64,000 nt of DNA from an uncultured Chloroflexia bacterium (lineage in GTDB: Bacteria > Chloroflexota > Ktedonobacteria > Ktedonobacterales > Ktedonobacteraceae): contig CAVYFA010000001.1 in assembly GCA_963767715.1 (NCBI GenBank), forward strand, positions 67,517 through 131,516, given 5' to 3'. Every line of letters begins with the position of its first letter. Position 1 is the stretch's first letter. This document shows, one piece after another, positions 32,783 to 57,801 of the stretch. Below the pieces are notes generated by a model, which worked only from the letters and a program-made list of their open reading frames with translations, did no database searches and had not been told where the DNA came from. The position numbers and the translations under genes are program-made.

Positions 32783-32819
32783 TGTTTGGGGATGTGTAGC
32801 TTGTTGGGAATCTACTCAA

Positions 32820-35126: not shown

Positions 35127-35752
35127 ATGGAAGACCTCGAATCCCAGGATAGCCACGATTCACTATCTTTCGAACCTGCCAGTTCAGCAGTCGAAACCGC
35201 TGAGATGGAAGTTGCTAATTCATCCTCCATGGGGATATACCGGGATGTAATCGAGCAGGCGATTTTGCCACTACTTGTGGAATTGCGCGAACTTCGCCAG
35301 GACTTCGATACCAAGATCAAGTATGACGAGAGCAAAGAACGTCAGGTAGACAGCCTCCACAGAGAGTTGCAAAGCTACCGTGAGGGACTGCATTTTAAGA
35401 TTTACGCCCCCTCTTCATCGACCTCATCGCTGTGTATGATGATTTTGCTAAGCTCACAGAGAGTATGTCACTCCTTGAGTCGAATGATATCTCAAGTCAA
35501 ACCGTTGACAATCTGAGGTCATTCCAGGAAACGATTGAAGATATTTTAAATCGTAATGGGGTCGAGTCCTATAGCGTTGAAGGAGATAATTATATTCCCA
35601 ACCGGCAGCGCGTCTTGCAGGTCGTTGACACATTCGACCCTGCACAGGATAGGCTGGTTGCACGCCGAATACGTAAGGGTTTTGAGTATGAGGGCCGGGT
35701 GATACGTCCTGAAATCATCGCAACGTATAAAACTAGACAGGACAAAGAATAA
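35127..35752 (+). CDS. GrpE-like nucleotide exchange factor (frameshift at the CCCCC run ~35405)
   Basis: The C-terminal ORF 'FDPAQDRLVARRIRKGFEYEGRVIRPEIIATYK' matches the GrpE β-domain. N-terminal helical region is present. The frame break coincides with a 5-C homopolymer. Confidence 0.6.
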
Positions 35753-35808
35753 CCATTTCCTTTAACTAGAAAGTGATTCAGATAAAATTTAGATACTAGA
35801 GAGGAAGA

Positions 35809-37482: not shown

Positions 37483-37567
37483 TCGGTGCGTAATAATTTT
37501 GTAAAAATGTAATTGACGACATCTAGTTTAAGTACCAATCAGGGGCCTTCCCTAGAGGGAGGATAGG

Positions 37568-39645
37568 TTGAATAGTTTTGTCGGCATCGATCTCGGAACA
37601 ACTTACTCCGTGATTGCCTTCATCAATGCAAACGGCAAGCCAGAAATTATCCCTAACGAGTATGGACATGCGACGACTCCTTCAGTCGTCTACCTTGGTG
37701 GCGAGAAGCTGGTTGTCGGCGAAGATGCCAAAGAATTCCAGGCCATGGGGAAACAGGAGGTTGCCTCTTTTTTCAAGCGCAACATGGACGATATCTACTT
37801 TATGCTGTCGTTCAATGGAAGAACTACACTCCTGTAGACCTCTCAGCAGAAGTTCTTGCGTATATGAAAGCCCAGGCAGAGCGTCATTTGGGCAGTCCGG
37901 TAATCGATGCCGTGATTACTGTTCCTGCCTATTTCACACACGTGCAACGTTCCGCAACAATCAAAGCCGGGCGTAAGGCGGGCTTGAACGTCCTTAAGAT
38001 TATAAGCGAACCTACTGCCGCCGCACTGGCCTATGGGTTGCGCCCCAGCAACGAAAGACAGCGCGTGCTGGTTTACGACCTTGGTGGTGGCACCTTTGAC
38101 ATTTCGTTAGTTGAGATTACTCCCAACGAAATCAAAGTGCTGACCACTAATGGAGATCACAATCTGGGTGGCAAAGACTGGGATGATCGCTTAATAGAAT
38201 ACGTCGATAGCCTGTTCCGTGCGGAATTCAGCACGGACCTGATTGGGGACGACTTTAGCGAGTTGCGCATCCAGTCTGAAAGACTTAAGCAAACACTCTC
38301 TTCGCGCCAAAGCGGGGAGGTCCGCGTGCAGGCAGCAGGCAATGCCGGTACCTATTCAGTGACAAGGGAGAAGTTCGAGGAGCTTACGCTCGACTTAATG
38401 GAACGCACACAAATGCTGACAGAGCTTGTCTTGTCTGAAAAAGGCCTGACCTGGCAAGACCTCGATGGCGTTTTGCCCGTTGGCGGTTCGACCCGGATGC
38501 CAATGGTGCGTAACTATATCCAGCGTATGTCGGGGAAACCTCCCATGGCGGGCATCAATCCCGACGAAGCGGTTGCTCTGGGCGCTGCCATTCAAGCAGG
38601 CATGGAGATAGAGACGGGGCGAGATGCCAATCAGCCGATTTTTCGCCTAGCTGGGCGTAAATCCACCACAGACGTGATCGCTCACAGCCTGGGCATGATT
38701 GCAGTAAACGACGACCGTACGCGCTATATCAATAGTATTCTAATCGGAAAAGACCTGGAAATACCCTCAGCAAAAACACGACCTTACACAATGAACATCC
38801 GCCAACGGAGCGAGACGGAAATGGAGGTCTTTTTGACGCAGGGCGAGAGCGAAGACCCCCAGCAATGCGCCTATCTTGGCCGATATATCTTCTCAGATTT
38901 TCCGCCCATTGCCAGTAAAACAACGCCTGTGGATGTAACCTATGAGTACGATAAAAATGGTGTCGTGCACGTCTCCGCTGTCGAACGTTCAGCCGGTACG
39001 CCCTTGAAATTGCGTGTCGAGCCGGTTCCTCCTGATGTACCAGCGCGTTTTACCGGGTCGCCTAAAGATCAAGAAGTGCGCGAACATTTAACGGTATACC
39101 TGGCCTTCGACCTTTCTGGCAGTATGAGCGGTCGCCCACTTAAAGAAGCGAAGCGAGCCGCCGAGAAATTTGTCAGTCAGTGCGACTTGTCCTCTACCTC
39201 GCTAGGCTTGATCTCCTTCTCGGATAGCGTACAAGTTGACCAGAGCGCAACTCAAAATGGGAGAGAGATCATGCGGGCCATTGCCGGTCTCACCATCGGG
39301 CGAACCGGATATGGAAACCTCGGTCACCCCTTTAATGAATTATATAATCGCCTGATGCAGGCTCCAGGTATACGTTATGCAATCGTGTTGGCCGATGGTG
39401 TCTGGTCCCACCAGGACACCGCTATCAAGCACGCGAAACATTGCCATGAGGCTGGCATTGAAATAATCGCCATCGGCTTTGGAGGAGCCGATCGCGCATT
39501 CCTTGCGAAAATCGCATCGTCGTCCGAACAGAGTTTTTTCACAGACATGAGTCGGCTGGCAGAAACATTCAGCACCATCGCTCAGGAACTGACAGAGTCG
39601 GGAGGCGAAAAACGGCCCTTTGGAAAATTGGGCTGGAAGCCTTAA
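37568..39645 (+). CDS. Hsp70/DnaK-family ATPase (#2) fused to a C-terminal von Willebrand factor A (vWA) domain; one frameshift ~37815-37825 (aaa to aa)
   Basis: NBD 'FVGIDLGTTYSVIAF', 'DLGGGTFDISLVEI', 'GGSTRMPMVRNY', 'NPDEAVALGAAIQA'. C-terminal MIDAS 'VYLAFDLSGSMSG' plus 'IVLADGVW'. GGGAGGA RBS with a TTG start. Confidence 0.85.
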
Positions 39646-39681: not shown

Positions 39682-42600
39682 ATGGCTGGAGAGCAAACGA
39701 CCGCCAAACCTAACTTTTTCATTCTGCTCGGGTTCCATCCCGATGATCCCTGGGATCAGAAGAAGTTTGAGGAGACGCTGAAAGCGAAACGCGGTGAATG
39801 GTCGCGCAAAAGCAGCGGCGTAGGTAATGTGGAATGGAGGCCAGGAGAAATCTCGCGCTCTACGGTGAGATTAAGCAGTCATGGCCGACAAGACCAGGCG
39901 CGACGCCGAGGCAGAAGCAGCCAGAAAGGAACGGCTGGCGGGGCAAAGCGCGAAAATAGACCAGTTCGAGCGGCAGGTAGAAATGCTCGCCAGAAAAAGC
40001 TTTCTGGAACAAACCGAAGTTGACAGACTGGTTGCTGACTTTAAGGATGTTCTCACAGAACGAGAGATCAGAGCCGTATTAAAGTGCCGGTTAAAGCATC
40101 CGATCCCCAGGTCGGAAAAACGCAACAACAACTTGAGCCAGCGACTGTCAAGGCCATCAACCAGCGGCTCCAACCGCTCCAAAAGAAAGACCTCTATGAC
40201 TTGCTGGGGATGTCACCGAGCGTCTCAAGCGATCAACTTCTCAAGGCCGCACAAGCACTGGCCGAAGATATGCTGCGCCGCCAGCCAAAGACGCAGGAAG
40301 TCACCATGCAGGCGGAACTGGCGGGTCACGCAAAAACGATTTTCAAAACCCAGGAGATGCGCCAGAAGTACAACGAATCTTTGCGTTATAGCACTCTGAA
40401 TGCGCTTTTAGAGGAGTTTGAGCAAACCGTCGCCATTCAAAAGGGTCGCCTTTATGCCGGGCAGGTGGCCACGTTTCTGGAACAGGCAGCCCGCGCGCGC
40501 TGGTCAAAGGAAGAAGCGCGCGCCAAGTTGAACGAGTATGCCAAAAAGCGAAGTTGGTTGTCGAGGTGCCGACTATCGAGATCGGCAACGAGAAACAGCG
40601 CTGCGGTGACTGTGAAACGATGAACGACAAAGGGCGCGAATATTGTGTCAAGTGCAACGGTCAACTCCGTTTCACCTGCCCAGATTGCGGCAACGCTGTT
40701 AGCTCTGACGAAGTTGGATGCGGCAAATGTGGTTTTCCCGTTGGCAATCGCTACTGGGTCGATAGCCTTCTCACTGAATGCCAGACGCTGCTGACTCAGC
40801 ACGATCTGAAGGCTGCCAATGAGCAACTCATGCTGGCGGAAGAGGCCTGGACGCCAAAGAAACCCGATACCCGTCTCAAGCGGATCCAGGAGTATCGCGC
40901 CGAAATCCGCCGCCATGAGCAGGCTCAACAGCAGAATATTGAGCAACTGAAAGCATATATCAATAAGCACCAATTCTTCACCGCGCGCGATTACCTGGCA
41001 CAGCAGCCACCGGATGCCCTCCCCGATAAAGAGAGCTATCTGCAAATCATCACGGGCGAAATTACCCAGGCCCAGGCACTGCTTAAAAAGACCAGGACAA
41101 TCACCGATACTACTCAGAAGTTTGATCTGTGTGTTCAGGCGCTGCGCATCTGCACAGATTATCAAGAGGCGCGAGATGTCTTGAGCACTACCCCACCTTC
41201 CCCCCCCAAGAATCTCAGCGTAAAGGTTGGCGACTCCACAATCAGCTTACAGTGGAACCCCTCGCCGACACGCGACGTCAGCTACATAATTGTGCGTAAA
41301 ACGCGCTCGCGGCCGGTATCGGTGAAAGACGGGCAAATTCTCGCAAGGGTCGGCGGGCGCATGTACGATGACACACAACCGGAAATTGGCATATCGACCT
41401 TCTACTCCGTTTTTGCTGCCTTTGAAGATATTACTTCTATCGAGGCCGCCACACTGCAGCACCCCATTATGCTTACAGCAGAAGTGGAAGACATAAAAAA
41501 GCGTATTGACAATCGGCTGGTCGAGCTGACCTGGAAAGCTCCTCAAAATGTTCATACAATCATGGTTGTGCGCAAGGAGAAAATGGCTCCTGCTTCCGTC
41601 GAGGACGGGGTAAAGGTCGCGCCGCTAGACCTGCAGCACTTGGTTGATCGAACCGTGAAAAACGAGTGCCTCTACTTTTATAGCATTTTCTGTCAGTTCA
41701 AAGATCATGATGCACGCATTATCACAACGACAGGGATGACGGTAAACGCAACACCAGAAACGCCTCCTGAGATCATCCGGCGTTGGATATTTCGAGCCAG
41801 AAAGTTGTCAAGGGCTACGATGTAAAGCTGCGTTGGGCCACACCCCCCAAGGGTGAGGTCGTCATACTTAAATCAGCGCAGCCTCTTGCTGTGAGAGCCG
41901 GTGAAGCACTGGCGATACGCGAACTCACCCGCTTTGGAAATTTACTGAAAGAACATCCCGATTCCTGCACCGATCGAGAGGCACATCCAGGTGTCGCATA
42001 CTACACGCCGGTCGTTATTTTTCAGGGTACCGCCTATGTCGGTGCGGCGCAACGTCTTGCGTTGATAGACGACGTGAGCGATCTCAGATATCAAAATCTC
42101 GGCTCGGCCATACGTTTAAACTGGAACTGGCCCGCGAATTGCCAGGAGGCTATAGTCGCCTTCGACTATAATGGGTATCCGCAGTTAAACGGCAGAACGC
42201 CCAATGCGCACAAAGTGATGCGCGCAGAATATGAGCACAGAGGATTTTATGATATTCGCGGAAACATGGAGCGAGATCACTATATCGTCGTGGCGGCAGT
42301 AATCCGGCAGGGCAATGACGAGATAATTGGTCCTGGCGCACGGGTGCAGGCTCGCCTGATCAGCAAGATTGTTCTGAGCTATGAGATCAAGCTTCCACGC
42401 TTGTTCGGCCCAAAGAAGCGTATACTCAGCATCTCATCGCGTACGGCAGGCAAATTGCCCAACCTGCTACTGGTGAGCAAACAGGGCCGATTGCCCTTGC
42501 GCCGGGAGGAAGGTGAAGCCTATTTTCGCCTGCAGGGGCCAATCCCGATTGAGAGTACGCTGGAATTTGAATTGCCGGACAAGTCGTTCGGCCCTAAAAC

Positions 42601-42688
42601 GTTCGGCAAACTCTATCTTGAAGATGATGGACTGTATGAGATGGTGACGATTCACCATCCCAGCGAAGATAAGTTGAGGCTTTCATAA
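39682..42688 (+). CDS. Large multidomain protein (~1000 aa, 3-4 frameshifts): degenerate J-like N-terminal segments, a double zinc ribbon and four FN3-like β-sandwich repeats
   Basis: 'NFFILLGFHPDDPWDQKKFEETLKAKRGEW' and 'DLYDLLGMSPSVSSDQLLKAAQAL' look like J-domain helices but lack HPD. 'CGDCETMN...CVKCNG...CPDCGNAV...CGKCGFPV' is a double zinc ribbon. Repeats are marked by 'PPKNLSVKVGDSTISLQWNPS', 'LVELTWKAPQN', 'VKLRWATPPKG', 'IRLNWNWPAN'. Confidence 0.45.
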
Positions 42689-42692
42689 TGCA

Positions 42693-43861
42693 ATGTTAGG
42701 CCAAAAGATTATCTGCCCATTCTGCTTCGAATCATTTTCGGTCCAGGAAATACAATTTCGCTGCCTCAATCCCAGTTGCACTGGACGAGCGGTCGATCAG
42801 ATCTATGCCGAAGCGCGAAATGTCCCACCATTGCAGATGGGCCACGTAATCAGCGCAAAAAAGACCTCTTTCGGGGTGGCCCGTACGGTCGATTGTGATG
42901 TGTGCAAGAAGGAAGCGCGCACGCGCCTCTGTCCCAGGTGCCATTTTGAGCTTTCCCACGATGTAGGGCAGGTCGATCAAAAAATCATTGCGATTATCGG
43001 CGGCAGCAATACCGGTAAGAGCCACTACATCGCTTCGCTAATCACTCGTTTGCAGCATGTCGTTGGCGGGAACTTCAATTTCGCCGTCTCTATGCTCGGT
43101 GACGGCACAAGAGAACGCTGGCACAGGGATTTCTACACGCCCCTCTTTGAGAACAAGCGGGTGCTTCAGCCAACACAGCGCTCAACTGTCGATACCATTG
43201 TAAAGACCCCACTGATCTTCCGGCTGACATTCAAAGATGGCAACAACATACGAGCATTGAATATCAGCTTCTTCGATACTGCAGGTGAGGATATGTCCAA
43301 ACTACAGGTCGATGCCCTCTCAGTTGAAGCCCGTTATATCTGCAAAGCTGATGGGTTGATCGTTTTGCTCGACCCTCTCCAGATCGAAAGCGTTCGCCAA
43401 CAATTACCCAACATACAAAAGCCATAGCCAGACCCGATGGCACGCCCCGAATTTATCGTTGAGCGTCTACGCGAGCTGATGGAAGGCTATCATAATCTGT
43501 CCGGTTCGAAAAAAATTTCTATTCCGGTCGCTTTCACTTTCTCCAAAGTCGATACGCTCAGGAGCATTGTTGCTCCTGATTCGGCATTCTCCAGCACAGC
43601 ACGCACTATGGTGAGCTTGACCTCCCCGACGTACAATCGGTGAGTACCGAAATCGGTAACTACGTGCAAGCCTGGATTAATACCGGTTTCTACAATGAGA
43701 TCGATTATAAATTCGCCAACTATCGTTTCTTCGGCGTCTCTTCCCTGGGCAACCAACCTGATTCTTCTGGACAGGTCAAGGTCGAGCCGCTGCGCGTTGA
43801 GGACCCTTTCCTGTGGATACTGCATCAGTTTAAGATGGTCAAAGGGAAGAAAGGGAGGTAA
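42693..43861 (+). CDS. Double-zinc-ribbon-fused P-loop GTPase (~390 aa; frameshifts at ~43430 and ~43640)
   Basis: N-terminal 'CPFCFE...CLNPSCTG...CDVCKKE...CPRCHFE'. G1 'IIGGSNTGKSH', G3 'FFDTAGED', G4 'FTFSKVD', G5-like 'GVSSLG'. The C-terminal 'VEDPFLWIL' is shared with the 47122 paralogue. It starts 4 nt after the previous stop. Confidence 0.65.
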
Positions 43862-43863
43862 TT

Positions 43864-46800
43864 ATGGCGGTTTTCCAGCATTATTACACATCATACGTCA
43901 ATAGGGAGACAGGAAGCGCGGGATTTCAGGTCAAAGCGATGTCGCCCGGAATCGCCGCCGATACGCAATCGACCATTACACGCCTGATATCATATCGTAT
44001 TCCTTCCAGGCTTGACGAGTACGCTATCTCTACACATCCCGTGGCTTTGCGTTACTACTATCGAAATCCGCAAGAAGCGATTTTACTGTGCAGTCAATCC
44101 AATGGGACTGACGAAAATGGGCGTCCCGGCAATTTTTTTGCGCATAGCCTGGTAGTCGAGCCCGACTTTTTCGCCAGTATGCCGCCTATTTTATACTGGC
44201 GCAGCCCTTTCTGGCGTACAAAGGACCCAGGATCAAGCGCGGTGATAGAGCCGATAGAAAGCCTGGAAGAGATCGCAACAGCGCTTGATATCGAGGGGGT
44301 ATGGCATTTCCTCGCTCAAGGAAAACGCATCGAACAATTCCATAAGCTCATGAGCGCCGTCGTGCATTGCAACAGTACACAACGCCGCATTGTGATTATT
44401 GACAACGCAGATAACGTTGCGCAGTGGATCGCGGCGATCACGATCATGTTGCCGCCCGACTACCGGCCATTACTCAGTTTTGCCACCTATCATCATGATC
44501 CCTACCAGTCGCAATTTATGGTGACGGGCACGACCAGCGATTCTTCGTTCCGCGCTTCGCCTGAAGAGTATATGAGCTACTTCATACTGAACACACAGAA
44601 CGGCAAGATCAGTGATGTCGAAGCTTCGCCTTACGCCGATGAAGCTGTCAGAGCTGCTCGCTCTTATGAAATCTACGAGTCGAAACTGCTCTCTCTTATC
44701 ACAGATACCGTGCCGCGTTTCCAGCGTCCAACCCGCATTGATGAGCAACTCGATTCAATGGCGTTGTATGCAGGGATGCTCGAGCCAAACCACGCGTTCT
44801 CTTTAAACAGAGAAGAACTGGAAGCAATAAGTGTAGTCCTGACAACATTTGAACAGATGCGCGTTTTTACGCAAGAAGACCTGGACGAAGTGCGACAGAT
44901 AAGCTATCTGCTCCAGGAAACATCTTGGTCCCAGAGTGCTGAGGATATCGATGTCGAAAGCCGGCGTGTGGTCACTCTGCTCAGAAAACATAAAGCGCCA
45001 ACAGAACAGTCAGCGCTACGTGAGATAAAGTATATCACACAGCACCTTATCAACGATGTAGATATATCGTCATCACTCCAACGCCTGGAAAACATGCGCC
45101 AGATTTACGGCGAAGATCTATTGATCGATATTGTCAACAGTACTAACTACCTACAATGGCTGAACAAGCTTGCCGAAACAATCAATGCAGCACAACTGTC
45201 ACAAATCTGGAAATACCTGGCTGTTTATCTCAATCCAGGCCCCCACAGCCAACCTTTTACGATAGCCAGTTTAACAATCGTGGGGATACTCTGGAGTGAC
45301 AAACAGGCCCAGAAAGACGTAAGAAGGGCGATCGAGGCTATGGTACAGGCAATGGCTGGACAGGAAGCTGCCTGGCTGGAACTAATTGCGGCAAACTACA
45401 ATGTGCTGCCAGACGGGATACTCCTTCGTTACTACTGCTGGATGATGGTTGGCCGATTCCCTCTTGACAACCGCCTACCCTATCGAGAGATTGTGCAGCG
45501 TGTGATTCCCCACATCATTAAAAATGAGCTTGTCCACGAAATCTCTAAAGCCGGTGAAGCCAATAGTCTTGCGATACTGGAGGAATGGGTTGATCATGCC
45601 AGAAAGAATCACTTGGTATCGCTCACAGATTTGCTGATCGAAGGTATTAAACGTATCTTGAGGAATACCCCAGATGGAAAAGCGCCAGAGATGGCAGCGA
45701 AAATTTTAGTGAATGAAAGGTTGGCGCCACTGCCAACGGAATTGGAGAATGATCTTGTTTCTACAGCCATATCACAGGTTTCACTGAGCCATTACTCGCC
45801 CTTAGTGCTGGAGTTATGTAAGAAGTACAGAAACCGGCATGGCCTCTCATCCGATATTCGCGCCGTCATGGATGGGCTGATAGCCATGTCAAGCGGAGAG
45901 TTGGATGAGGAACTCGCGAAGCGCCTGCAAGACAGATTTGCTAGCATGCGACCAGAAGCGTACGAGGCGGATACAAAGAGCTTTGTAACTCGATTTCTCC
46001 AGGTTTGTACCACGGGTCGCTCTCATCAGCTCATGATAAATACCTTCTTCGATTGGGATTACCCTAAGACATTTTGGCAAGTCTACTGGCGTGCATTCAC
46101 GGGATTGCTAACCTATCCAGATACCTCAAGAGTGGATCAGGCGATGAAACTCTTGTCGTTCTGGTTCAGTGCTAGACCGGATGACTTTGAAAGCGCGTAT
46201 CTCTTACACAACTTTCTCATGGATTTACCTCAAAAACTTGAAGAGGTGCAGGAGACCCGCGGCTTCCAAGAGGCAGCACGATATATCAATTCTAGGGCCG
46301 AATCAGAGCGATGGTATCCTCTGGTGCAGGATTACTTTTCGGGTCGAACTAGTGCTTTGCAGACAGTAGGGCGAACCCTGGCTACGCATATCCAGAAACT
46401 CAGAGCAGAAGATAGTGAAAAGGCCGCCCGACAGGCAGAAAAAGAGCAGAGAGAACGCGCAGCCCTTGATGAGCGCATCTCAGCGATGTTTGATAAGAGG
46501 AAATCGAGCCAGTATCATCTTCGGATAGTTGGCGATGTCTATGAATGGCAACAGCGTGAGCTTTTCTGGTCAATTTATTGGAGCCATTTCAAATCTTTGT
46601 TCACCTCTGAGAATAATGCGCAGTGCATTCTTGATCTCTTCCACTTCTGGTTTGACGACTCGTTCTCAGTTCTGCCACAGAAAGGATATATTCCCCGGCA
46701 GTTCTTCCTCAAATTGCACGATGCTTTGATGGAGGCGCAGAAAGAGCGAGGTTTCCGTGAGCTCGCTCGCAACATCTTTAGAATAGGAAAGCAACAGGTG

Positions 46801-46878
46801 CAAGTCTACCCATGGTTTGTATTGATACAACCCTACCTTGAGGAACAGGAAAAGCGGTTTGGTATCTTCAGGCGATAA
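43864..46878 (+). CDS. Large (1004 aa) predominantly α-helical protein of unknown function; candidate GTPase-associated component
   Basis: GGAGG RBS. Uninterrupted ORF. N-terminal α/β-like region 'MAVFQHYYTSYVNRETGSAGFQVKAMSPGI' followed by ~800 aa of helical repeats. It lies between the two DZR-GTPase genes. Confidence 0.55.
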   Translation: MAVFQHYYTSYVNRETGSAGFQVKAMSPGIAADTQSTITRLISYRIPSRLDEYAISTHPVALRYYYRNPQEAILLCSQSNGTDENGRPGNFFAHSLVVEPDFFASMPPILYWRSPFWRTKDPGSSAVIEPIESLEEIATALDIEGVWHFLAQGKRIEQFHKLMSAVVHCNSTQRRIVIIDNADNVAQWIAAITIMLPPDYRPLLSFATYHHDPYQSQFMVTGTTSDSSFRASPEEYMSYFILNTQNGKISDVEASPYADEAVRAARSYEIYESKLLSLITDTVPRFQRPTRIDEQLDSMALYAGMLEPNHAFSLNREELEAISVVLTTFEQMRVFTQEDLDEVRQISYLLQETSWSQSAEDIDVESRRVVTLLRKHKAPTEQSALREIKYITQHLINDVDISSSLQRLENMRQIYGEDLLIDIVNSTNYLQWLNKLAETINAAQLSQIWKYLAVYLNPGPHSQPFTIASLTIVGILWSDKQAQKDVRRAIEAMVQAMAGQEAAWLELIAANYNVLPDGILLRYYCWMMVGRFPLDNRLPYREIVQRVIPHIIKNELVHEISKAGEANSLAILEEWVDHARKNHLVSLTDLLIEGIKRILRNTPDGKAPEMAAKILVNERLAPLPTELENDLVSTAISQVSLSHYSPLVLELCKKYRNRHGLSSDIRAVMDGLIAMSSGELDEELAKRLQDRFASMRPEAYEADTKSFVTRFLQVCTTGRSHQLMINTFFDWDYPKTFWQVYWRAFTGLLTYPDTSRVDQAMKLLSFWFSARPDDFESAYLLHNFLMDLPQKLEEVQETRGFQEAARYINSRAESERWYPLVQDYFSGRTSALQTVGRTLATHIQKLRAEDSEKAARQAEKEQRERAALDERISAMFDKRKSSQYHLRIVGDVYEWQQRELFWSIYWSHFKSLFTSENNAQCILDLFHFWFDDSFSVLPQKGYIPRQFFLKLHDALMEAQKERGFRELARNIFRIGKQQVQVYPWFVLIQPYLEEQEKRFGIFRR

Positions 46879-47121: not shown

Positions 47122-48654
47122 ATGGCTATTTTCGAACCCCAACCCGCATTTAAGATATACGCGTTTGAACGGGGCTGGCGCATAATGAAATATGTCACAG
47201 AGAACCTCTTCAAGCGCACCGATGTTGCTGCTCGCTGGTGGTTTACAAAGGCGGAAGATGCTAAGACGCGCAGTACAACTCAGGGAGCATTTGTAAAGTA
47301 CTGGATGTATGTATATATGGCAGGGCTGTATCTGGCTGGTGGTGCGCAGTACGTTTCCGCCATGATACTGGCTGCTCTATTTCTGCTAGTACAGTCAATC
47401 CTCCTCTCGCTCTGGGTTGTGTTCTCTATCATTACCATAGGCATCCTTTGGCTCTGTACATTTGCCTACTCGCGCCTCTATCGCATATTCTACCGCTGCC
47501 CTGACTGTCACAAGGAAATGAGCATCCCCACCTTCATTTGCCCGAACTGTAGCGAGAAGCATTCGCAATTGTGGCCCAGTATCTACGGCATCGTCTCACA
47601 TTGTTGCATCAAGTGCAATACCAGGCTCCCCACATTGCGCATAGATATTCCGGGGATGAAACTCAAGAAACGCGATAGCCTCGTTCGCATTTGCCCAAAT
47701 TGCTCCAGTCAGATCAACGCAGCCATTGGAACGGGGACAAATATTCATTTCCCAGTTGTAGGAGGACCTTCCACAGGTAAATCAAACTTCATCGTCATGG
47801 CCACGAAAGAATTTATCCAAACCTATGGCGATGAGCATCACTACTCGATCTCCTTCACTGATAGTAGGCACGAGCTAGATTTCAATGAGAATGTCAGGCG
47901 ACTCTCGACCGGACACGCGCTAGTCGCGACGACGGAGGTTGTGGCTCGGGCCTATAACCTGAAGATCCAATCTCCGAAAGCGCATGTGCCGAAGATTGCC
48001 TACATATACGATGCCGCAGGTGAGGCATACAACACCAGTGAGAACACCTCACAGCAAGAATATTACAAGTATATCGATGGGATAATCTTCGTGATTGATC
48101 CTTTCTCTATTCCGACTTACCGCAGCCAGCATGTCCAGGCAATTGAACACTATCAGAATCTGATCCGCCCAAGTTCGCTGGATGTAATGCAGGCATACGA
48201 GCGCATGTTCAATATGTTTGAAGATTTTGCAGGCTTGCGCAAGGGACGTCGCTTTACTCATCCGATCGCGGTCGTGGTGACAAAAGTCGATGCGCTCAAC
48301 CTGGAATTTGAGATTGGATCAATTGCCGCTCAGCAGACAATGAGTACCACTCCTTCTCTAGCATCTGAGGGCGATGCAATTAATTTGCTGGTACGCAACT
48401 TCCTGTGCCAGAACGACCTTGATCACTTCGTCCGCGATATCGAAATGCAATTCTCTAATGTGCGCTACTTCTCCTGTTCTGCACTTGGACGTATGCCGGT
48501 GCAAGAGGATAACCGCAGCTTCATGCCCGTGCGCGTCAGTGACCCGTTTATCTGGCTACTAGCACGCACTAAAGCTATCGACGCCATACCGAATACCGGA
48601 AGGGTAACGCGCGTCCTCGGCCCACAAGTCATGACTATGCGACAAGAGAACTAA
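47122..48654 (+). CDS. Membrane-anchored double-zinc-ribbon GTPase (paralogue of the 42693 gene), 510 aa, intact
   Basis: TM helices 'YLAGGAQYVSAMILAALFLLVQSILLSLWVVFSIITIGILWL'. 'CPDCHKE...CPNCSEKH...CCIKCNT...CPNCSSQ'. G1 'VVGGPSTGKSN', G3 'IYDAAGEA', G4 'VVTKVDA', G5 'CSALG'. C-terminal 'VSDPFIWLL'. Confidence 0.7.
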   Translation: MAIFEPQPAFKIYAFERGWRIMKYVTENLFKRTDVAARWWFTKAEDAKTRSTTQGAFVKYWMYVYMAGLYLAGGAQYVSAMILAALFLLVQSILLSLWVVFSIITIGILWLCTFAYSRLYRIFYRCPDCHKEMSIPTFICPNCSEKHSQLWPSIYGIVSHCCIKCNTRLPTLRIDIPGMKLKKRDSLVRICPNCSSQINAAIGTGTNIHFPVVGGPSTGKSNFIVMATKEFIQTYGDEHHYSISFTDSRHELDFNENVRRLSTGHALVATTEVVARAYNLKIQSPKAHVPKIAYIYDAAGEAYNTSENTSQQEYYKYIDGIIFVIDPFSIPTYRSQHVQAIEHYQNLIRPSSLDVMQAYERMFNMFEDFAGLRKGRRFTHPIAVVVTKVDALNLEFEIGSIAAQQTMSTTPSLASEGDAINLLVRNFLCQNDLDHFVRDIEMQFSNVRYFSCSALGRMPVQEDNRSFMPVRVSDPFIWLLARTKAIDAIPNTGRVTRVLGPQVMTMRQEN

Positions 48655-48663
48655 AGGCCGTTT

Positions 48664-48882
48664 GTGTTAATGAAGAAAGGAGAGAAGAGAGTGATGAGTG
48701 AACGCGATGCAATGAAGGCAACAGACAATTCAGGAGTACGATACAAGCAAAACGATGGAGCTAACCGCTCTGGAGCTAGACGCCGCGAGGGACTGGCTAA
48801 GGAGACAGATGCGTTCGAGGCGCGCAGGAAGAGCGCTGAAAATCTGAAGAAACGCAGCCGCCACGAAACCTTTAGGCAGTAA
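48664..48882 (+). CDS. Small highly charged hypothetical protein (72 aa)
   Basis: Composition resembles the 49137-49391 segment (R/E/K/A/N-rich). AGGAGAGAAG precedes the start. Weak call. Confidence 0.25.
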   Translation: MLMKKGEKRVMSERDAMKATDNSGVRYKQNDGANRSGARRREGLAKETDAFEARRKSAENLKKRSRHETFRQ

Positions 48883-49136: not shown

Positions 49137-49903
49137 TTGATTATGCATAATCGTGAAGGGGCAGAATTTACCGAGAGGCAATCTCAAAGTAAGGATAATG
49201 CATTTGAAAGACGTCACGCAGGCTTCAGGTCTAGTAGAGATGCAGGAGCTCAAAGTGACGCATATAACGCTAATGAGCGAGTTAAAACGGCATCAAGCAG
49301 ACTGGAAGATGGTAATCGGCATCGGGTTTTTAGATCGGAGGAGACTTCTACCAAAGCCCAGCAAGATAAAGTCATGAGTATTCTGACCTGAGTGGCCAGG
49401 AAACAGAGAGAAGACAATTTTCTACAATTGAAGGACGCACTGTTCGGTTATCCCAGGAGGAAATCAAAGCGGTCAAATCGGCACTGGCTACTGAGCAAAG
49501 TATAGACAAAAACCGGTTTCCGCCTGAAAAGACGGCTGCGGCTGTTGAAGGTGGACCCTGCACCCTTAGTGGATGGGAACATGGGAAAGAGGATTTTGTA
49601 CAGGCAATGGAAGATGTGAGAATACGCTCTCAGCAAATTGGGCACGAGCTGAGGCCCCACAAGCTATTCGATAGAGGAGTTCCTGGACGATTCAATGCAT
49701 CTCATGCAGAGAAGCAGATATCAGTCGTTGCTCCTGATAAACCAATTGCTGTCTCAAAGCCAATGTGCTCAGATTGCCAATCATATTTTCGAGCCACCGC
49801 ACGATACACAGAGAAATCGCAAGTCGTTGCTGATTCTCGTGTAGTGAGGATTTTTTATCCTGATGGTAGAGTTGTAGAGTTACCAAAAAGTACATTTGCA
49901 TAA
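49137..49903 (+). CDS. Candidate toxin: charged N-terminal region joined (frameshift ~49388) to a C-terminal deaminase-fold-like domain (HAE...PMCxxC)
   Basis: 'GRFNASHAEKQISVVAPDKPIAVSKPMCSDCQSYF' has the zinc-ligand spacing (H-x-E, then ~24 aa, then PC-xx-C) of the nucleic-acid/nucleotide deaminase superfamily. The reading frame is open from 49388 without an ATG and continues the 49137 ORF after a 1-nt shift. Confidence 0.35.
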
Positions 49904-49916
49904 TAGGAGCAAAATA

Positions 49917-50582
49917 ATGTCGCTTCCAACTGAATTGACCCAGGTCATCAAGAATGCGCAGGATGCTGTGGAGAAGCATCCATACCACGATTTAAATCTT
50001 GGTTATCGACAGGCTATCTGGGCCGCTCTTGGGCCTTCTCTAAAAACATCTCAAAGAGGTGGTAACAATGCCGGTTTAAAGAGGCGCGCCTTTTTAGCAA
50101 TACTAACAACGCGATATGTCTTGCCAATTTGGGAACGGGTCAGGCCAGAAGATCATATCCTACAAGACCTGCTTGCCGAAGCGGAGCAGGTTTTGACCGG
50201 CACTGTTGACAAGGAAACGGCCTGGAATGATAGAGACCGGTTTTGGGTATATTTTGTTGATATGGGGAACGAAGATGAAAAAAAACAAATCATTTCAGGC
50301 GTGGGTTTTGCTGCAGTTCATGCTCTTACTGTTGCGTTGCAGGATGAAAGTTTTGATCCTTCTAACATAAACTACAATCTCACGGATGCTGACATAGACC
50401 CGGACGAGATGGACTCCTCCTTCTTCGCTGCCTCTACCTATGCCAATGGTCCGGTTTCGGAACCAGATTCTGATGCTGAGAAACGACGAGATTTTTGGGA
50501 GTGGTGGTCAACCAGGCCGTTCCTGCTGCCTGGAATGCTGCTTCTTAAAGAGCGCATAGTAATGCTTGACTCAAGCGTATAG
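49917..50582 (+). CDS. Candidate immunity protein (acidic, helical, ~220 aa), overlapping the end of the deaminase-like gene
   Basis: AGGAG RBS inside the last codons of the upstream gene, with ATG at 49917. The operonic overlap is typical of toxin-immunity pairs. There is no recognisable catalytic motif. Confidence 0.4.
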   Translation: MSLPTELTQVIKNAQDAVEKHPYHDLNLGYRQAIWAALGPSLKTSQRGGNNAGLKRRAFLAILTTRYVLPIWERVRPEDHILQDLLAEAEQVLTGTVDKETAWNDRDRFWVYFVDMGNEDEKKQIISGVGFAAVHALTVALQDESFDPSNINYNLTDADIDPDEMDSSFFAASTYANGPVSEPDSDAEKRRDFWEWWSTRPFLLPGMLLLKERIVMLDSSV

Positions 50583-50605: not shown

Positions 50606-51534
50606 ATGCCATACATAAAATGTACTACTTGTAATTATAAAATCCAGCTTCCACAACCAAAACCGGTATGTCCTGCCTGCGGTAGGCCTTTCACCGTCCC
50701 AGGTTCGGGATCAACCGCGAAGCCTGTTCCTGTGCCAGCTCCAACCGGCTCCGCTATCCGCCTGTGCCGGTACCTCCACCAGTCCCCCCAATACCAACGC
50801 CGTCAGGTGCACCAGTCCCGCCGGTTCCAACATCAACTGTTTCGGCGCTTGGACCATTGCCACCCGGAATGCCATCTCGCGTACCGGATTTAGAGGGGGA
50901 GATAGCCCTTCCGCCTAAACGGGCCCCAACAAATTCCACTCGACTGGTCCCAAAAGATACTAAAAGGACTGTTCTTCCCTTTCTTCATGCGAGAGATGCA
51001 AAAACAGGTTCTCTCCCCAAACCCACCATGACGGTACATCAATGGCAAATCGAGCGCGCTGGCGATGGGGCCAGCCGCGAGGCTCGCATCGAAGGTGATC
51101 TTGTAGCGGGCCAGCCCAGCCTGCATCAGAAGGTTTCTCTGTGGGGACGTTATCGAGGGGGCCTGCTGATCGTGAAACAGGGCTACAATCATGACACGGC
51201 ACGAAATTCGCGTTCATCGCCCGGTAACGCTCTGGCTCTCACGAGCGGCTGTCGTGGCCTTGCCCCTCTTCATTCTGGCCGCTTTGCTTTTTTCCCGGCC
51301 TCATCCAGTCCGCGATCAGCACGATAGGAGGGCTGATTATCATCGGCATTATCTTTTACGTGGTGATGGGTTTCATCGCTCCCTGGATGCCCAAACGTAT
51401 CCTGAATTTCCTCGTTTTAGCGTTTCTACTCTATCTTGTGGCGGTTGTTTCTTCATGGCTTTGGCGGTACACAACCTCACTAACAGCGAGGAGACCTTAT
51501 GTTTTCTGGTTTTGACCCGAAGTGGATAGAAGAG
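50606..51534 (+). CDS. Zinc-ribbon / Pro-rich linker / C-terminal TM protein (~300 aa, three or more frameshifts)
   Basis: 'CTTCNYKIQLPQPKPVCPACG' ribbon. 'PVPPPVPPIPTPSGAPVPPVP' linker. TM helices 'LWLSRAAVVALPLFILAALLF' and 'GLIIIGIIFYVVMGFIAPW...LVLAFLLYLVAVVSSWLW' lie in alternating frames. Confidence 0.35.
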
Positions 51535-51580
51535 CTGCGGGGAAAAAATTGAAACACTGGAACATGCTTCTTTAGACAGC

Positions 51581-54500
51581 ATGACACCCCACAAATTCGC
51601 CCTGGCCGACGTGTTTGATGAGCATGAGCATACCTTCTACTCGATTCAGGGACTGGCAAACTTCTGGAACAATAATCCAGATGTCGATTTTGGGCAGCGT
51701 ATTACAGACCTTGTGATCGGGGCGCACAACCAGCTTCAATCAGATCTGGTGTTAGTGATAGCCGGTACTGCTCAAAAATTGTCAGTGTATATTTCCTTAG
51801 GAAACCCGGCAACGACACTGAGTATGCTCGAGGGTATTCTTCCTGGTATCCATATCGAACCGGCTCCTGTAAAAAATCTGGCTCGCTATTTATATCCGCA
51901 TTTTCAGGTACAGGGCATCATCACGGGCATACCCAGTCATAAAGCGGCGAAGGAAGGCTCCCCGGCTGTCCCCGTTGAGCGCTGATGCTGGTTCTTCCGG
52001 CCTGTCTACTACAAGCCTGAGCAGCGCTCCCACCACAGGTTAATCGCAGTTGGAACGCGTTGTGCGTGGCATGTATAGAGCAAACTGGGTCTACGTTGTC
52101 AAAGCTCATCCACGTTCCCGGTATGCGGTAGCTCAGGACAGGCTGGAGATGCTTGACCTGCTGGCGCGTGTCGCGTCTCAATCGCGTATTCAAATGCAGG
52201 TCACGGAACAAGGTACTAAACAGGAAACGGAAGTCAATTACAGGTGGCATACAGAAGCGTTGAGCAGTGAAAAGGTGAATTACCGCGCACAGTATCTTAT
52301 GCGACTACTGGAACGAGAGCTGGAACGACTCAACCAATCAGCAGCCTCGGGACAATGGATCGTGCAGACCTACTTCGGGGCCAGCACTCCCGGTGATGCG
52401 CAAAGGCTGGCTTCGCTGCTCGTAGGAGCGCTGGCCGGTAAGGATTCGCGCCCAAATCCTCTCCGTGCCTTCACCTGCCGTGATGGAGGGACGCCGCTGT
52501 CCAACTTTACAACGTATCTCTCCTCAGATGAGGTGGCAACCCTTATCCAACTTCCGCGCGAAGAAGTGCCCGGTTATGCCATCTCCGACTTTGTGCGCTT
52601 TGATGTTGATTTTCGCTTCTCGAACCATACTGCGCGGGTCCGCCTCTTTCCCTCGGGCATATTCAACATAATGGACAGGATGCTGAACCCTACCAGATCG
52701 ATCTTGATGACCTTGCCAAACACGGAGTCGTGGTGGGTGTAACCGGCAGCGGGAAGACCACCACGGTGATGAATTTGCTGGATTCTCGTGGTCTGAAAGG
52801 AAGCCATTTCTAGTGATCGAACCTGCTAAAACCGAATATCGCGCTTTACGCAGTTCGCTTCTGGAAAAGCAGACGTGCGCATCTATACGCTTGGCAATGA
52901 GAACATCGCACCGTTTCGCCTCAACCCATTTGAATTTGAGACAGATGATACTCCTGGCAGCGCCTCGGTTGTGAACCATATCGACTTCTTGAAGGCTGTC
53001 TTCAATGCGGCCTTTATTCTCTATGCTCCAATGCCCTATGTCCTGGAAATAGCCTTGCACGAAATCTACGAAGACAAAGGCTGGGACTTAGCTACCGGCA
53101 TGAATACGCGCCTGCCCAAATGGTCCGAGCATGATCTCCACCCGATTTTTCCCACACTGACGGATCTGTACTGTAAGGTGGAAGCAGTCGTCGATCGACT
53201 CAGGTATGATACCCAGACCGAGCAGATGGTCAAAGCGGGGCTGAAAGCCCGTATTGGCTCGATGCGCATGGGTGCAAAGGGCTAGATGCTGGATACAGCG
53301 CGGGGTATACCCATGCAGCAATTGCTCTTCATCCCACCATCCTGGAAATGGAAAATATCGGCGGTGACGATGAAAAGACCTTTCTCATGGGTATACTGCT
53401 CACAAAACTCTACGAATTTCGACGCCTGCAAGCGGCCTCCGGTTTAACGCCCGGCAATTGCAACACTTAATCGTCTTTGAAGAGGCTCATCGCCTCTTAA
53501 AGAATACCGAGACACAGGTGGATACAGATCATCTAATATGCGTGCGCAGGCTATTGAAGTTTTTACCAACATGCTCTCGGAGGTGCGCGCCTATGGACAA
53601 GGCGTGCTGGTAGCGGAACAGATACCCGCTAAGCTGGCTCCCGACGTACTGAAAAATACCAATCTCAAAATCGCCCATCGTCTCGTCGCGCAGGATGATC
53701 GGCAAAGCGTCGGCTACAGAATGAATCTCAACACGGAACAAATGAACCACCTGGGTATCCTTTCGCCGGGCATGGCCGTCGTGTATGCTGAAGGGGCGGA
53801 TCATGCCTATAAGGTACGCCTGGATAATTACAAGAGCGCCTTACCAACCCTGACCGATGTGCAGTTAAAAACCTCCAGCGTGAGCTATGCCTCGGTAAAA
53901 GACTACCAGCTTATCCTTGATCTTCATCGCTATAATATTCATCGTTCCGAGTTCGGCGGCCCGGATGCTCTTCTCTGCCAGCATGCTGCCCGGCTGTTAG
54001 CCACCGAAAAAGGCCGTGGCTTCTCTCGCACCTGCTATTGCGTACCGTCTTTAGCCGATCACAGGTGTCCCAGGCCATCCAGATGTTGGAGCAATATATC
54101 GAGCTGGTGATTCCTTCGCTGCAAACCAGCCCCCATATGCAGGAAGCAACGTTAAAAATGATGCTCGTTCGAGGCGGCGCCGAAGTTTTGCACAGACATG
54201 GGGCATTGTTCGGCTGGACATACCCTCTCGTCGAAGAGTTGCGCGTTCCGCTGACACAAGGCTTGCTGACATTTATTCAGAAAAGAGACCTTGCACTTGT
54301 CAGTAGCGATCTTGATCGCTTTGCGCGTCGCTACGAAAAGCTTTTAGAGCGAAACCAGGGACCATTTGCAGGTTGTGAACATTGTCGCACAAAATGTCTG
54401 TATCGTTTAGAGACCCGCGTCCTCCTCTTGCCACCAGACAAGGAGTGGATTGATGGGGAACTCCAGACAAATCATCCCACGCCGGCAGATACCTATGCTG

Positions 54501-54673
54501 CTATAGCCAGGGCGGCTCAAACTATCGTCAGCAACTGGCTTGGCGAGTCAAAGAATGCTGCTCTCCCGGACCTGGCCTATTGCGCCGCCCTTCATGTAGA
54601 GTCAGAGACAGGATTGACCGAGTATGAACAGAGGAAGTTCGGAGAATCGCTCAGCACGGAATTGCTCACCTAG
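51581..54673 (+). CDS. HerA/FtsK-superfamily (DUF87-like) ATPase, ~1000 aa, fragmented by several frameshifts
   Basis: Walker A in an alternate frame at ~52700-52760 'IDLDDLAKHGVVVGVTGSGKTTTVMNLL'. 'VIFEEAHRLL' (53465-53500). 'EVRAYGQGVLVAEQIPAKLAPDVLKNTNLKIAHRLVAQDDRQSV' matches the HerA-type 'EGRKyGvgl..SQRPs.l...vlsqcnt.ialrl' block. The ~210-aa C-terminal helical domain is intact. Confidence 0.55.
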
Positions 54674-55004: not shown

Positions 55005-55021
55005 GTCACAGGCAAGATTAC

Positions 55022-57801
55022 TTATCCTTCTCCGCTCCCGTCAGCGCCGCCTGAGCGGCCGCAATCCTGGCCACGGGCACGCGGAAGGGCGAGCAACTGA
55101 CGTAGTCGAGGCCGACCATGTGGCAGAACTCGATGCTGTCGGGGTCGCCGCCGTGTTCGCCGCAGATGCCCAGTTCCAGGTGGGCATTGGTCTTGCGGCC
55201 CTTCTCGACGGCCATGCGCACCAGCTGGCCGACGCCGTCGCGGTCGAGCGTCTGGAATGGGTTGAGGGGCAGAATCTTGACGCGTTCCTTCAGTCCTGGC
55301 TCCTCCAGGCCATCGACATACTTGCAGCAGGAATTTGCCCTCGGCGTCGTCGCGGCTGATGCCGAAGGTGGTCTGCGTCAGGTCGTTGGTGCCGAAGCTG
55401 AAGAAGTCGGCGACGGTGGCGATCTGGTCGGCGGTCAGAGCGGCGCGCGGCAGCTCGATCATCGTGCCGAACTTGTACTCGATGGGCGCGCCCGCCTCGG
55501 CGGTGATCTCCTTTGCCACCGCTTCGAGCTGGCGGCGCACCTCCTTCAGTTCGTTGACATGCCCGACCAGCGGGATCATGATCTTGGGCTGCAATTTCTT
55601 GCCCTGCTTCGCCAGTTCGCTCGCGGCTTCGAGGATGGCACGCGTCTGCATGACGTTGATCTCCGGGAAGAGCAGGCCCAGGCGGCAGCCGCGCAGGCCC
55701 AGCATGGGGTTCATCTCGCGCATGGCTCCCACGGCTTCGAGCATCTTGCGCTTCTCTGCCAGCTCCTTTTCGTGGCCGCCCAGCGTCTCCAGGCGCGTCA
55801 CCTCGACCAGCAGCTCTTCATACGAGGGCAGGAACTCGTGCAGCGGCGGGTCGATCAGGCGGATGACGACCGGGTAGCCCTCGCCCGTCTCCGGATTGAC
55901 CATGGCCTCGAAGATGCCCTTGAAGTCGCTGCGCTGGAACGGCAGCAGTTGATCGAGCGCGGCCTGGCGCTCCTCTTTCGTCTCGGCCAGGATCATCTTC
56001 TGCACGATGGGCAGGCGCTCCTGCTCCATAAACATATGCTCGGTGCGGCAGAGGCCGATGCCCTGCGGCGCCGAAGGTGACGGCGCGCCGGGCGTCGCGC
56101 GGGTAGTCCGCGTTGGCCCACACGCCCAGCCGGCGGTACTTATCGGCCCAGCCCAGCAGCGTCTTCAGGTCAACTTCCCGGTCGAAATCGGGGTCCACCG
56201 TGCGGATGATGCCCGCGAAGACCTCGCCGGTCGTGCCGTCGATGGAGATATCGTCGCCCTCGCGAATCACAGTATCTTTGCCGACGACGCGGAAAAGGCG
56301 CTCCTCTTCGTCGACGCGGATGCCCTCGGTACCGGCGACGCAGGGCAGGCCCAGGCCACGCGCCACCACCGCCGCGTGGCTGGTCGCGCCGCCGCGCGCC
56401 GTCAGAATGCCCTTAGCCACCAGCATGCCATGCACATCGTCGGGACTGGTCTCCGGGCGCACCAGCACCACCGGCGTGCCCGCCTTGCCCAACTGCTCGG
56501 CGCGGTCGGCATCGAAGACGGCCTTGCCGCTGGCCGCGCCCGGGCGAGGCATTCAGACCTTTCGCCAGCAGGCGGCCCTCCTGTTCGGCGCGTTTCTTCT
56601 CCTCCTCGTCGAAACGCGGCAGCAGCAGTTGGTAGACCTGGAATGGATCGACGCGCTTGATGGCCTCTTGCTCGGTAATCAGGCCCTCCTCCACCATATC
56701 GACGGCGACCTTGACGGCCGCAGGAGCGGAACGCTTGGCGGAGCGGGTCTGCAGCATGTAGAGGCGGCCCTTTTCGATGGTGAACTCGAGGTCCTGCATG
56801 TCGCGATAGTGCTGTTCGAGGCGCTGGGCGATCTCCTGGAACTGCTGGTAGACATGCGGCAGTTCTTCCTGCAGGCGGCTGATCCTGGAGGGCGTGCGAA
56901 TACCGGCGACCACGTCTTCGCCCTGCGCGTTGAGCAGGTATTCGCCGTAGAGCTGCTTCTCGCCTGTGCTGGGGTTGCGCGTGAAGGCCACGCCGGTGCC
57001 GCTGTCGTTGCCCATATTGCCGAAGACCATGCTCTGCACGTTGACGGCGGTGCCCAGGTCGTGCGGGATCTTGTTGAAGTTGCGATAGTCGATGGCGCGC
57101 CGGTTGTTCCACGAGGAGAAGACGGCTTCGATGGCTTTGTGCAACTGCTGGTAGACATCGGTGGGGAAGGGCTCGCCGGACTGGCGCTCAGCGATCTGCT
57201 TGAACTCGCCAACCATCTTCTTGAGGGCGTCGGCGGGAATTTCGGCATCGGTTTGTACGCCGGCCTGCTCTTTATACTGATCCAGCTTCTGCTCGAAGTC
57301 GCGCGGGTCGGTGTCCAGCACGATCTTACTGAACATCTGGATGAAGCGGCGATAGGCGTCGTAGGCGAAACGCTCGTCGCCGGTCAGCTTGACCAGCCCC
57401 AGTACCGTCTCGTCGTTGATGCCCAGGTTCAGCACGGTATCCATCATACCGGGCATCGAAAATTTCGCGCCGGAGCGCACGGAGACCAGCAGGGGATTCT
57501 CCTGCTTGCCGAAGCCCTTGCCGGTCTGCTCTTCGACGATCTTCAAGGCCGTCAGAGCCTGTTCCCACATGCCCTGCGGGAACTGCTTGCCCGCGTCGTA
57601 GTAGGCGTTGCAGGCCTCGGTGGTAATCGTAAATCCGGGAGGGACGGGCAAGCCCGCGTTGGTCATCTCGGCCACGCCCGCGCCCTTGCCGCCGAGCAGG
57701 TCGCGCATCCCGGCGTTGCCCTCGCTGAATAAATACACCCATTTCCTGGGGGACTGTTTCACTGCTTCATCAAATTCAGTACTTGCAATTTGCTGTGTCA
57801 C
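55022..57801 (-). CDS. ppdK: Pyruvate, phosphate dikinase (~920 aa) in three or four frame-shifted pieces
   Basis: N-terminal ATP-grasp '[28 protein letters not shown]'. Central phosphohistidine domain '[21 protein letters not shown]'. C-terminal PEP-utilising TIM barrel 'NEL...GTNDLTQ' and the last exon '[23 protein letters not shown]'. All are collinear on the minus strand. Confidence 0.9.

Follow-up and report, generated by a model that had tools for sequence, protein, structure and literature searches.

A predicted SsdA-type deaminase toxin and its Imm5 immunity gene in a toxin-swapping slot of a GAP1-N2/HSP70/HerA gene cluster

What is a predicted deaminase toxin, with an immunity gene directly downstream, doing in a cluster of GTPase, chaperone and ATPase genes, and could a toxin whose leader and catalytic domain lie in different reading frames still be produced by its host? 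These questions are raised by positions 49137-50582 of a 64,000-nucleotide stretch of DNA from an uncultured Chloroflexia bacterium (contig CAVYFA010000001.1, positions 67,517 to 131,516); the whole of this stretch is referred to here as the window, and coordinates are those of the window unless a homologous locus (L numbers) is named. The region carries a toxin gene of the SsdA type, followed by a gene of the Imm5 immunity family, between a DO-GTPase gene and genes for a zinc-ribbon protein (ZnR) and a HerA-type ATPase. The stand-alone toxin and its cognate Imm5 protein are likely to be an interchangeable payload of the surrounding GAP1-N2/HSP70/HerA system, with the frame break in the toxin gene likely to be an error in the sequence.

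The translation of the frame containing the deaminase domain (49370-49903) matched the Pfam family SsdA_C (PF24120) with an E value of 5.1e-16 and a score of 59.5 bits, the cut-off of the family being 27. When the Protein Data Bank (PDB) was searched with the same frame the only match was SsdA, which was recovered as 7jtu_A (E 2.4e-28) and 9c63_A (E 1.6e-27), and the match to 7jtu_A spanned the entire toxin domain (chain residues 47-162). The segments SHAEKQ and SKPMCxDCQ are identical between the window toxin and SsdA, HAE is the same in both, and PMCSDC in the window aligns with PMCTDC in SsdA. The catalytic and zinc-binding HAE motif is located at 49703-49711 (+) and the zinc-binding PCxxC motif, PMCSDC, at 49760-49777 (+), 16 residues past HAE. 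An alignment of the window toxin with five metagenomic homologues (A2) demonstrated that HAEKQ and both cysteines of CxxC are invariant, as are all three residues of an SGW motif at 49565-49573 (+), which lies within TLSGW (49562-49576) and is numbered S58, G59 and W60 in A2. An earlier, sequence-only reading of this DNA had proposed a deaminase-like domain with HAE and PMCSDC motifs; the domain is borne out by these matches, and the motifs are both present and conserved among homologues, with the exception that the spacing of 24 residues given between them was wrong.

The SGW motif has been described as unique to the BaDTF2 toxins, which it distinguishes from the plant DYW editors, and it sits in an insertion near the active site that SsdAI touches in its crystal complex with SsdA (de Moraes et al., PMC7901873). 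BaDTF2 proteins also differ from the DYW editors in having neither the C-terminal DYW tripeptide nor the CxC second zinc site (PMC7901873), and the window toxin, which ends in ...RVVELPKSTFA, has neither of these features. SsdA itself is a single-stranded DNA (ssDNA) cytosine deaminase, and SsdAI neutralises it at the SGW/active-site surface (PMC7901873). By family, the predicted window toxin is a zinc-dependent cytosine deaminase of the BaDTF2/SsdA type, within the DYW-like clade.

The gene downstream of the toxin is located at 49917-50582 (+), starts at ATG 49917 and, as sequenced, encodes 221 amino acids with an isoelectric point of 4.69. Its product matched Pfam Imm5 with an E value of 3.3e-36 and 125.6 bits (cut-off 25) and PDB 7jtu_B, which is SsdAI, with an E value of 2.6e-13; this is the partner chain of the toxin's own match in complex 7JTU. 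The conserved C-terminus of Imm5 (...WEWW-NQAVPAAWNAAS) runs on in the +1 frame past ~50508, to a TAA at 50546-50548. The toxin stop codon (TAA, 49901-49903) and the immunity start codon are separated by a 13-nucleotide spacer without overlap, and the ribosome-binding site of the immunity gene, read from the sequence as AGGAG at 49905-49909 (+), lies just 3' of the toxin stop. The TTG at 49896, from which a program-made list of open reading frames (ORFs) had begun this gene, is not used by the homologues, and no promoter or terminator was found between the two genes above shuffle expectation. The sequence-only reading was right to see an acidic downstream protein of ~220 amino acids and to regard the two genes as a toxin-immunity pair, and mistaken in making the genes overlap, with a ribosome-binding site inside the last codons of the toxin.

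Imm5 is the immunity family assigned to the DYW-like toxin deaminases (Iyer et al. 2011, PMC3239186). Imm5 genes 40-81% identical to that of the window were found 3' of a deaminase gene in L001, L006-L008, L010-L013, L015-L017 and L045, and the deaminase-Imm5 pairing is also kept in L019. The predicted folds of the toxin and of the immunity protein are settled, because the sequences match the solved structures of SsdA and SsdAI. The deaminase/Imm5 pair is of an already known kind, both families being in Pfam and the homologous complex having been crystallised.

The gene order DO-GTPase2, SsdA_C protein, Imm5, ZnR, HerA is found not only in the window but also in three further divergent lineages, which include L001-L005 and L045/L046, where the DO-GTPase2 proteins are only about 54-58% identical to that of the window. 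The deaminase relatives inside such systems are 214-291 amino acids in length. The position between DO-GTPase2 and ZnR/HerA, termed the slot below, is filled differently elsewhere. L035 encodes there a 317-amino-acid protein with a D...ExK-like motif together with Imm49 (E 1.4e-47), a published partner of Tox-REase-1/6. L029 has two paralogues whose C-termini match a CdiA-CT structure (PDB 6d7y, E 6e-5) and an 88-amino-acid ORF, and L043/L044 carry a DUF6883 protein (E 4e-16) with a weakly DUF4926-like protein of 79 amino acids. The slot of L024 and of L048 encodes only a small charged protein, and in L031-L034 a CHAT protein replaces the ZnR/HerA module directly 3' of DO-GTPase2.

Deaminase-bearing loci are not monophyletic in a tree of DO-GTPase2, in which the nearest relatives of the window carry DUF6883 or nothing; this scattering indicates cassette exchange. 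Because other pairs fill the slot, because the deaminase-bearing loci are scattered in the tree and because the cassette also occurs outside the system, the cassette is considered to be a mobile polymorphic-toxin module which a dedicated variable slot of the system acquired either repeatedly or long ago. The conserved synteny and the differing toxin/immunity pairs in the slot support the suggestion of the sequence-only reading that the deaminase might serve the adjacent system as its effector arm.

Several features of the homologous loci were recorded alongside this comparison. The two L029 paralogues (2841-4942 of that locus; 158 and 185 amino acids) flank the ZnR gene, and the 88-amino-acid candidate immunity gene follows the second of them only. 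Large CHAT-domain (caspase-like) proteins are encoded at 16311-20792 of L024, after HerA, and at 11514-15191 of L033, in place of ZnR/HerA, which suggests that the same core can be combined with CHAT proteins as a different output module. The cyanobacterial loci L011, L012, L013, L016 and L017 encode short leaderless deaminases of ~147-157 amino acids with doubtful start codons; these short deaminase and Imm5 forms are possibly orphan cassettes. In L020 the HAEK motif is interrupted by an in-frame stop, and L019 has two deaminase copies.

The leader of the window toxin is ~130 amino acids in length, of low complexity, 35% charged and 16% hydrophobic, and had no Pfam match; it has no hydrophobic stretch resembling a signal peptide and no WXG, LXG, PAAR or RHS domain. 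System-linked toxins in the slot (158-317 amino acids) likewise begin with a charged, low-complexity region, in which D, E, K and R make up 30-41% and hydrophobic residues are few. A motif of the form [SAT]F[KRH]PG is frequent near residues 25-29 of these system-linked toxins. In the form F[KRH][PS], near residue 28, the leader motif was derived post hoc from seven proteins, and pairwise similarity between leaders is weak, with E values of 0.005-0.02 in a tiny database; the motif is taken as a lead only.

The constant genes around the slot begin upstream with HSP70 (35809-37182), an HSP70 fused to a vWA domain (HSP70-vWA, ~37556-39645), a large zinc-ribbon protein encoded by a 1008-amino-acid gene (~39682-42688) and a second DO-GTPase (42693-43858), in which the Pfam DO-GTPase2 match covers 42693-43427. 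These are followed by a GAP1 gene of the N2 type at 43864-46878 (+), with matches to Pfam GAP1-N2 (E 1.4e-23) and GAP1-M (E 2.9e-15), by a gene for a small transmembrane (TM) protein, and by DO-GTPase2 itself at 47122-48654 (+; Pfam E 4.5e-11), which combines N-terminal TM segments with zinc ribbons and a GTPase domain and stands immediately upstream of the slot. Downstream of the slot, tblastn and frameshift-aware alignment to the homologues in L001, L024 and L029 located the gene for a zinc-ribbon/proline-rich/TM protein, ZnR263, at 50606 to ~51330 (+); ZnR263 is kept beside HerA in the relatives, and its coding sequence in the window is spread over more than one frame. The HerA/FtsK-type ATPase (DUF87; ~1050 amino acids) is encoded at 51499-54673 (+) and has a Walker A motif, GVTGSGKTT, and a Walker B motif, VFEEAH. 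HSP70 and HSP70-vWA are present, and GrpE, DnaJ and FNIII had no match among the window ORFs scanned. Among the system proteins PADLOC matched HerA alone, and NCBIfam, searched as a check for known systems, gave no match. The cluster is a GAP1-N2-type GTPase-centric system, probably with the HSP70 theme, as described by Kaur et al. (2020).

A small charged ORF at 48664-48882 (+), directly 3' of DO-GTPase2, encodes 72 amino acids, or 62 from an internal MSE start. Its counterparts by position are found in L024 (154 amino acids), L043 (131 amino acids) and L048 (134 amino acids), and an MSE start and an RHxSFR ending are common to them. Possibly the ORF belongs to the set of slot proteins as a member consisting of a leader alone.

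The toxin gene is in two parts. The sequence-only reading had treated 49137-49903 as one gene; as sequenced it is not a single ORF, and the leader and the deaminase are in different frames. The first part, at 49143-49391 (+) in frame 0, encodes the leader, runs from ATG 49143 to a TGA at 49389-49391 and has a translation that begins MHNREGAEFTERQS..., also given as MHNREGAEFTERQSQSKDNAFERRHAGFRSS... ATG 49143 is the start also used by the closest relative, P0001 (214 amino acids, 79% identity), which is encoded on L006. Over the start codon and the first 48 codons the window aligns colinearly with P0001/L006, and from the ATG onwards the genes are colinear except for one insertion. The second part, at 49370-49903 (+) in frame 2, encodes the remainder of the leader and the deaminase domain (~49541-49885) and ends at the TAA at 49901-49903. 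This frame is open from 49370 only and contains no ATG, GTG or TTG before ATG 49607, which falls 3' of SGW; the ORF from ATG 49607 encodes 98 amino acids without SGW and is unlikely to be a functional product.

The insertion, placed by DNA alignment with L006 (A1), occupies 49287-49396 (+) and is 110 nucleotides in length. Because this length is 3n-1, the leader frame and the deaminase frame are parted. In frame 0 the leader motif recurs within the insertion as a second copy, GNRHRVFRSEE compared with ERRHAGFRSSRD (NRHRVFRSE compared with RRHAGFRSS). Only at 49370-49388 (AGTCATGAGTATTCTGACC) are frames 0 and 2 open together, this being the sole place where they can be joined, and one missing base within this interval would, once repaired, give a continuous toxin of ~253 amino acids. 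Two other explanations of these features were rejected. A mobile element or RNA within the insertion was discounted on its leader-like coding and its single copy, since it has no second copy within the window, belongs to no repeat family, has no flanking duplication and had no match in Rfam. Programmed frameshifting was dismissed on inspection of the sequence, as there is no slippery heptamer in the overlap at 49370-49388.

Frame breaks are not confined to the toxin gene. Relative to intact homologues the window has ~25 breaks over 37.8-57.8 kilobases (kb), nearly all of them single missing bases. By a purpose-written frameshift-aware protein-to-DNA alignment, one was found in HSP70-vWA (at 37823), five in the 1008-amino-acid zinc-ribbon gene, one in the second DO-GTPase gene (at 43587), one in the Imm5 gene (~50508), up to five in the ZnR gene and nine in the HerA-type gene; GAP1 and DO-GTPase2 (the latter compared with L024) had none. 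Beyond the system, breaks divide the housekeeping PPDK gene at 55018-57801 (-) into three or more pieces. The fragments of the broken genes keep 52-55% identity to their relatives, the same as that of the intact genes. Given that nearly all of the breaks are single missing bases, that conservation is otherwise normal and that the housekeeping PPDK gene is hit as well, the assembly most likely contains many single-base deletion errors, unevenly spread, to which the break in the toxin gene would belong. The toxin gene is probably intact in the organism.

If the pair is indeed the payload of the system, a mechanism can be outlined. The repaired toxin would comprise a charged, probably disordered leader of ~130 amino acids and a C-terminal deaminase domain of ~115 amino acids, ~253 in total. 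By homology with SsdA, it would convert C to U in ssDNA, with lethal or mutagenic effect, and by homology with SsdAI the helical, acidic Imm5 protein would block the active site around SGW. Given the synteny observed, the pair would most likely be the swappable toxic payload of the system, with which it would be functionally coupled and by which it would be deployed. The toxin could act within the cell as a suicide or anti-invader effector, freed from the immunity protein by a GTPase/HSP70 switch according to the model of Kaur et al. Alternatively, the membrane components, together with the HerA/FtsK-type ATPase, could export it or release it toward neighbouring cells, an option that fits the use of polymorphic-toxin immunity families.

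Several observations weigh against the pair being a payload encoded by an intact gene. The leader motif was only partly reproduced in four new slot proteins (for example LGRPETG in L045 and MRPGEEG in L043), and PADLOC has no model for the rest of the system beyond HerA. The deaminase and Imm5 cassette was found in 13 genomes without a nearby GAP1, DO-GTPase or HerA, so it is mobile and a possible passenger. The toxin as sequenced has no continuous ORF and no start 5' of SGW in the deaminase frame. GAP1 and DO-GTPase2, which together cover 4.5 kb, are unbroken, so the error rate would have to be uneven, and real decay is possible.

The first rival concerns the relation of the pair to its neighbours. 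The pair might be a selfish or hitch-hiking cassette of the addiction type that landed between genes and works independently of the GTPase/HSP70/HerA genes around it. The occurrence of the same cassette in unrelated contexts (cyanobacteria, Gemmatales, Pelotomaculum, actinobacteria and a betaproteobacterium) argues for this, as do the system loci without a toxin in the slot, L024 and L048. It is hard to square, however, with the presence of at least four toxin/immunity types at the same DO-GTPase2-to-ZnR/HerA position in divergent systems, or with the tight downstream spacing, the ZnR gene starting 23 nucleotides after the Imm5 stop. Furthermore, the system-linked toxins are short and have similar charged leaders, whereas elsewhere the deaminases have long N-termini, two of those outside the system being the C-termini of toxins of 815 and 1664 amino acids. 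Such independence appears unlikely.

A bolder reading concerns the role of the constant core, which could be an unrecognised delivery or release machine for small leader-bearing polymorphic toxins. It would be composed of the TM/zinc-ribbon DO-GTPases, GAP1-N2, HSP70, HSP70-vWA, the zinc-ribbon membrane protein and the HerA/FtsK-type ATPase; the short charged leader, with its motif around F-[KRH]-P-G, would be the signal for recognition, and Imm5, Imm49 and their like would protect kin. This proposal is a tentative one and is given little weight here. If true, it would constitute a new trafficking route for polymorphic toxins and not an intracellular abortive-infection device.

A second rival concerns the toxin gene itself. 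It may be a genuine pseudogene, in which the 110-nucleotide insertion broke the frame and left a dead toxin and an orphan-like immunity gene in a decaying system. The want of a continuous ORF and of a start codon ahead of SGW, the insertion length of 3n-1, the breaks in the adjoining ZnR and HerA genes and their uneven spread, with GAP1 and DO-GTPase2 intact, are all as expected from decay. Against this, nearly every break is a single missing base, the fragments show no loss of amino acid conservation, and the breaks extend to the housekeeping PPDK gene and to genes upstream, a pattern that marks systematic deletion errors. The insertion is also open in the leader frame and encodes the second leader motif, and leader length varies naturally among the relatives, from 99 to ~185 amino acids. 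A pseudogene is accordingly regarded as improbable. A housekeeping nucleotide or RNA-editing deaminase, for which there is only the generic HxE...PCxxC zinc motif common to all enzymes of the cytidine-deaminase fold, is effectively refuted, as the toxin family SsdA_C and SsdA structures gave the sole significant matches, the toxin-specific SGW is present, a dedicated immunity homologue lies directly downstream and an NCBIfam search of the toxin gave no housekeeping match.

The base composition of the region was also uneven. A stretch of low GC content at 32000-36000 (41-48%, compared with 57-63% in the flanks) lies just upstream of the HSP70 genes and contains a fragmentary match to a NACHT/STAND NTPase P-loop, with ORFs at 33368-34267 (-) and 34264-34827 (-). 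The whole 32-54.7 kb block is below its surroundings in GC, which suggests that it is a horizontally acquired island. A second dip in GC content (43%) at 6001-8000 overlaps minus-strand ORFs at 5507-7234 and 7231-8100. Nearby, an SMC_N-like ATPase ORF at 3346-4242 (+) is followed by a gene for a NurA-domain protein at 4208-5500 (+; E 9e-35), a separate nuclease/ATPase pair unrelated to the system.

Among the known systems, the pair recalls SsdA-SsdAI of Pseudomonas syringae (BaDTF2; 7JTU, 9C63). The whole toxin domain is homologous, including SGW, HAEKQ and PMCxDC, and a homologous all-helical immunity protein is encoded directly downstream; by analogy, the activity would be deamination of cytosine in ssDNA, blocked by occlusion of the active site. 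BaDTF2 proteins have been stated to be universally linked to interbacterial antagonism pathways (PMC7901873). The window toxin, unlike SsdA and other BaDTF2 proteins, is short and stand-alone, with a charged leader and no trafficking or delivery domain recognisable by Pfam, and the pair, unlike SsdA-SsdAI, lies inside a GAP1-N2/DO-GTPase/HSP70/HerA cluster. These short SsdA homologues, ~50-60% identical in the catalytic domain, widen the diversity available around a deaminase that has been engineered into compact base editors.

The DYW-like toxin deaminases with Imm5 (Iyer et al.) belong to the same clade and use the same immunity family; there too the cassette is mobile and replaced, and relatives in other genomes form the C-termini of long toxins. 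The delivery routes listed for that clade are the type II, type VI and type VII secretion systems and PrsW-related routes, with PAAR/RHS repeats and HINT/PrsW peptidases (PMC3239186). None of the listed routes was found at the window locus, where there is instead a short leader weakly common to the slot proteins. The system resembles polymorphic toxin systems more generally in having variable toxins and immunity genes, and the leaders, whose similarity is weak as noted above, may or may not correspond to a common N-terminal part. It differs from them in that no secretion or trafficking domain was recognised; a HerA-type ATPase and membrane proteins adjoin the pair.

The constant genes correspond to the GAP1-N2 systems of Kaur, Burroughs, Iyer and Aravind (2020), with GAP1-N2 and GAP1-M, two DO-GTPases with zinc ribbons and TM segments, small TM proteins, and a constant core with a variable component. 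Two HSP70 paralogues, one of them vWA-fused, recall the HSP70 theme of that study. As published, the theme includes HSP70 paralogues with GrpE and a DnaJ/TPR-FNIII protein (Kaur et al. 2020), and the window differs in that its scanned ORFs matched neither GrpE nor FNIII. Nucleic-acid-targeting enzymatic effectors are a minority in GTPase-centric systems, most of which are without sign of effector secretion (Kaur et al. 2020). The text of that paper and one supplement do not mention a deaminase, Imm5, Imm49 or HerA for GAP1-N2 systems, and a literature search on the terms of the system found no other relevant or later paper.

Type VII secretion of LXG/WXG toxins (EssC/YueA) offers a further analogy, since there also an FtsK/HerA-family ATPase and membrane proteins may be compared with those found here beside small toxins with immunity genes. 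The window differs in having no WXG or LXG, and its ATPase is a single-domain HerA/DUF87 protein with a long N-terminal region and not a multi-domain EssC. Compared with all of these systems, the new element is the context, a slot for swapping toxins and immunity genes within a GAP1-N2/HSP70/HerA system, of which no prior description was found. A toxin with a known assay provides a tractable handle on the function of these large uncharacterised GTPase/HSP70/HerA systems. The slot thus ties the work on interbacterial delivery of BaDTF2 toxins to that on GAP1-N2 systems, which had been described without classical nucleic-acid effectors.

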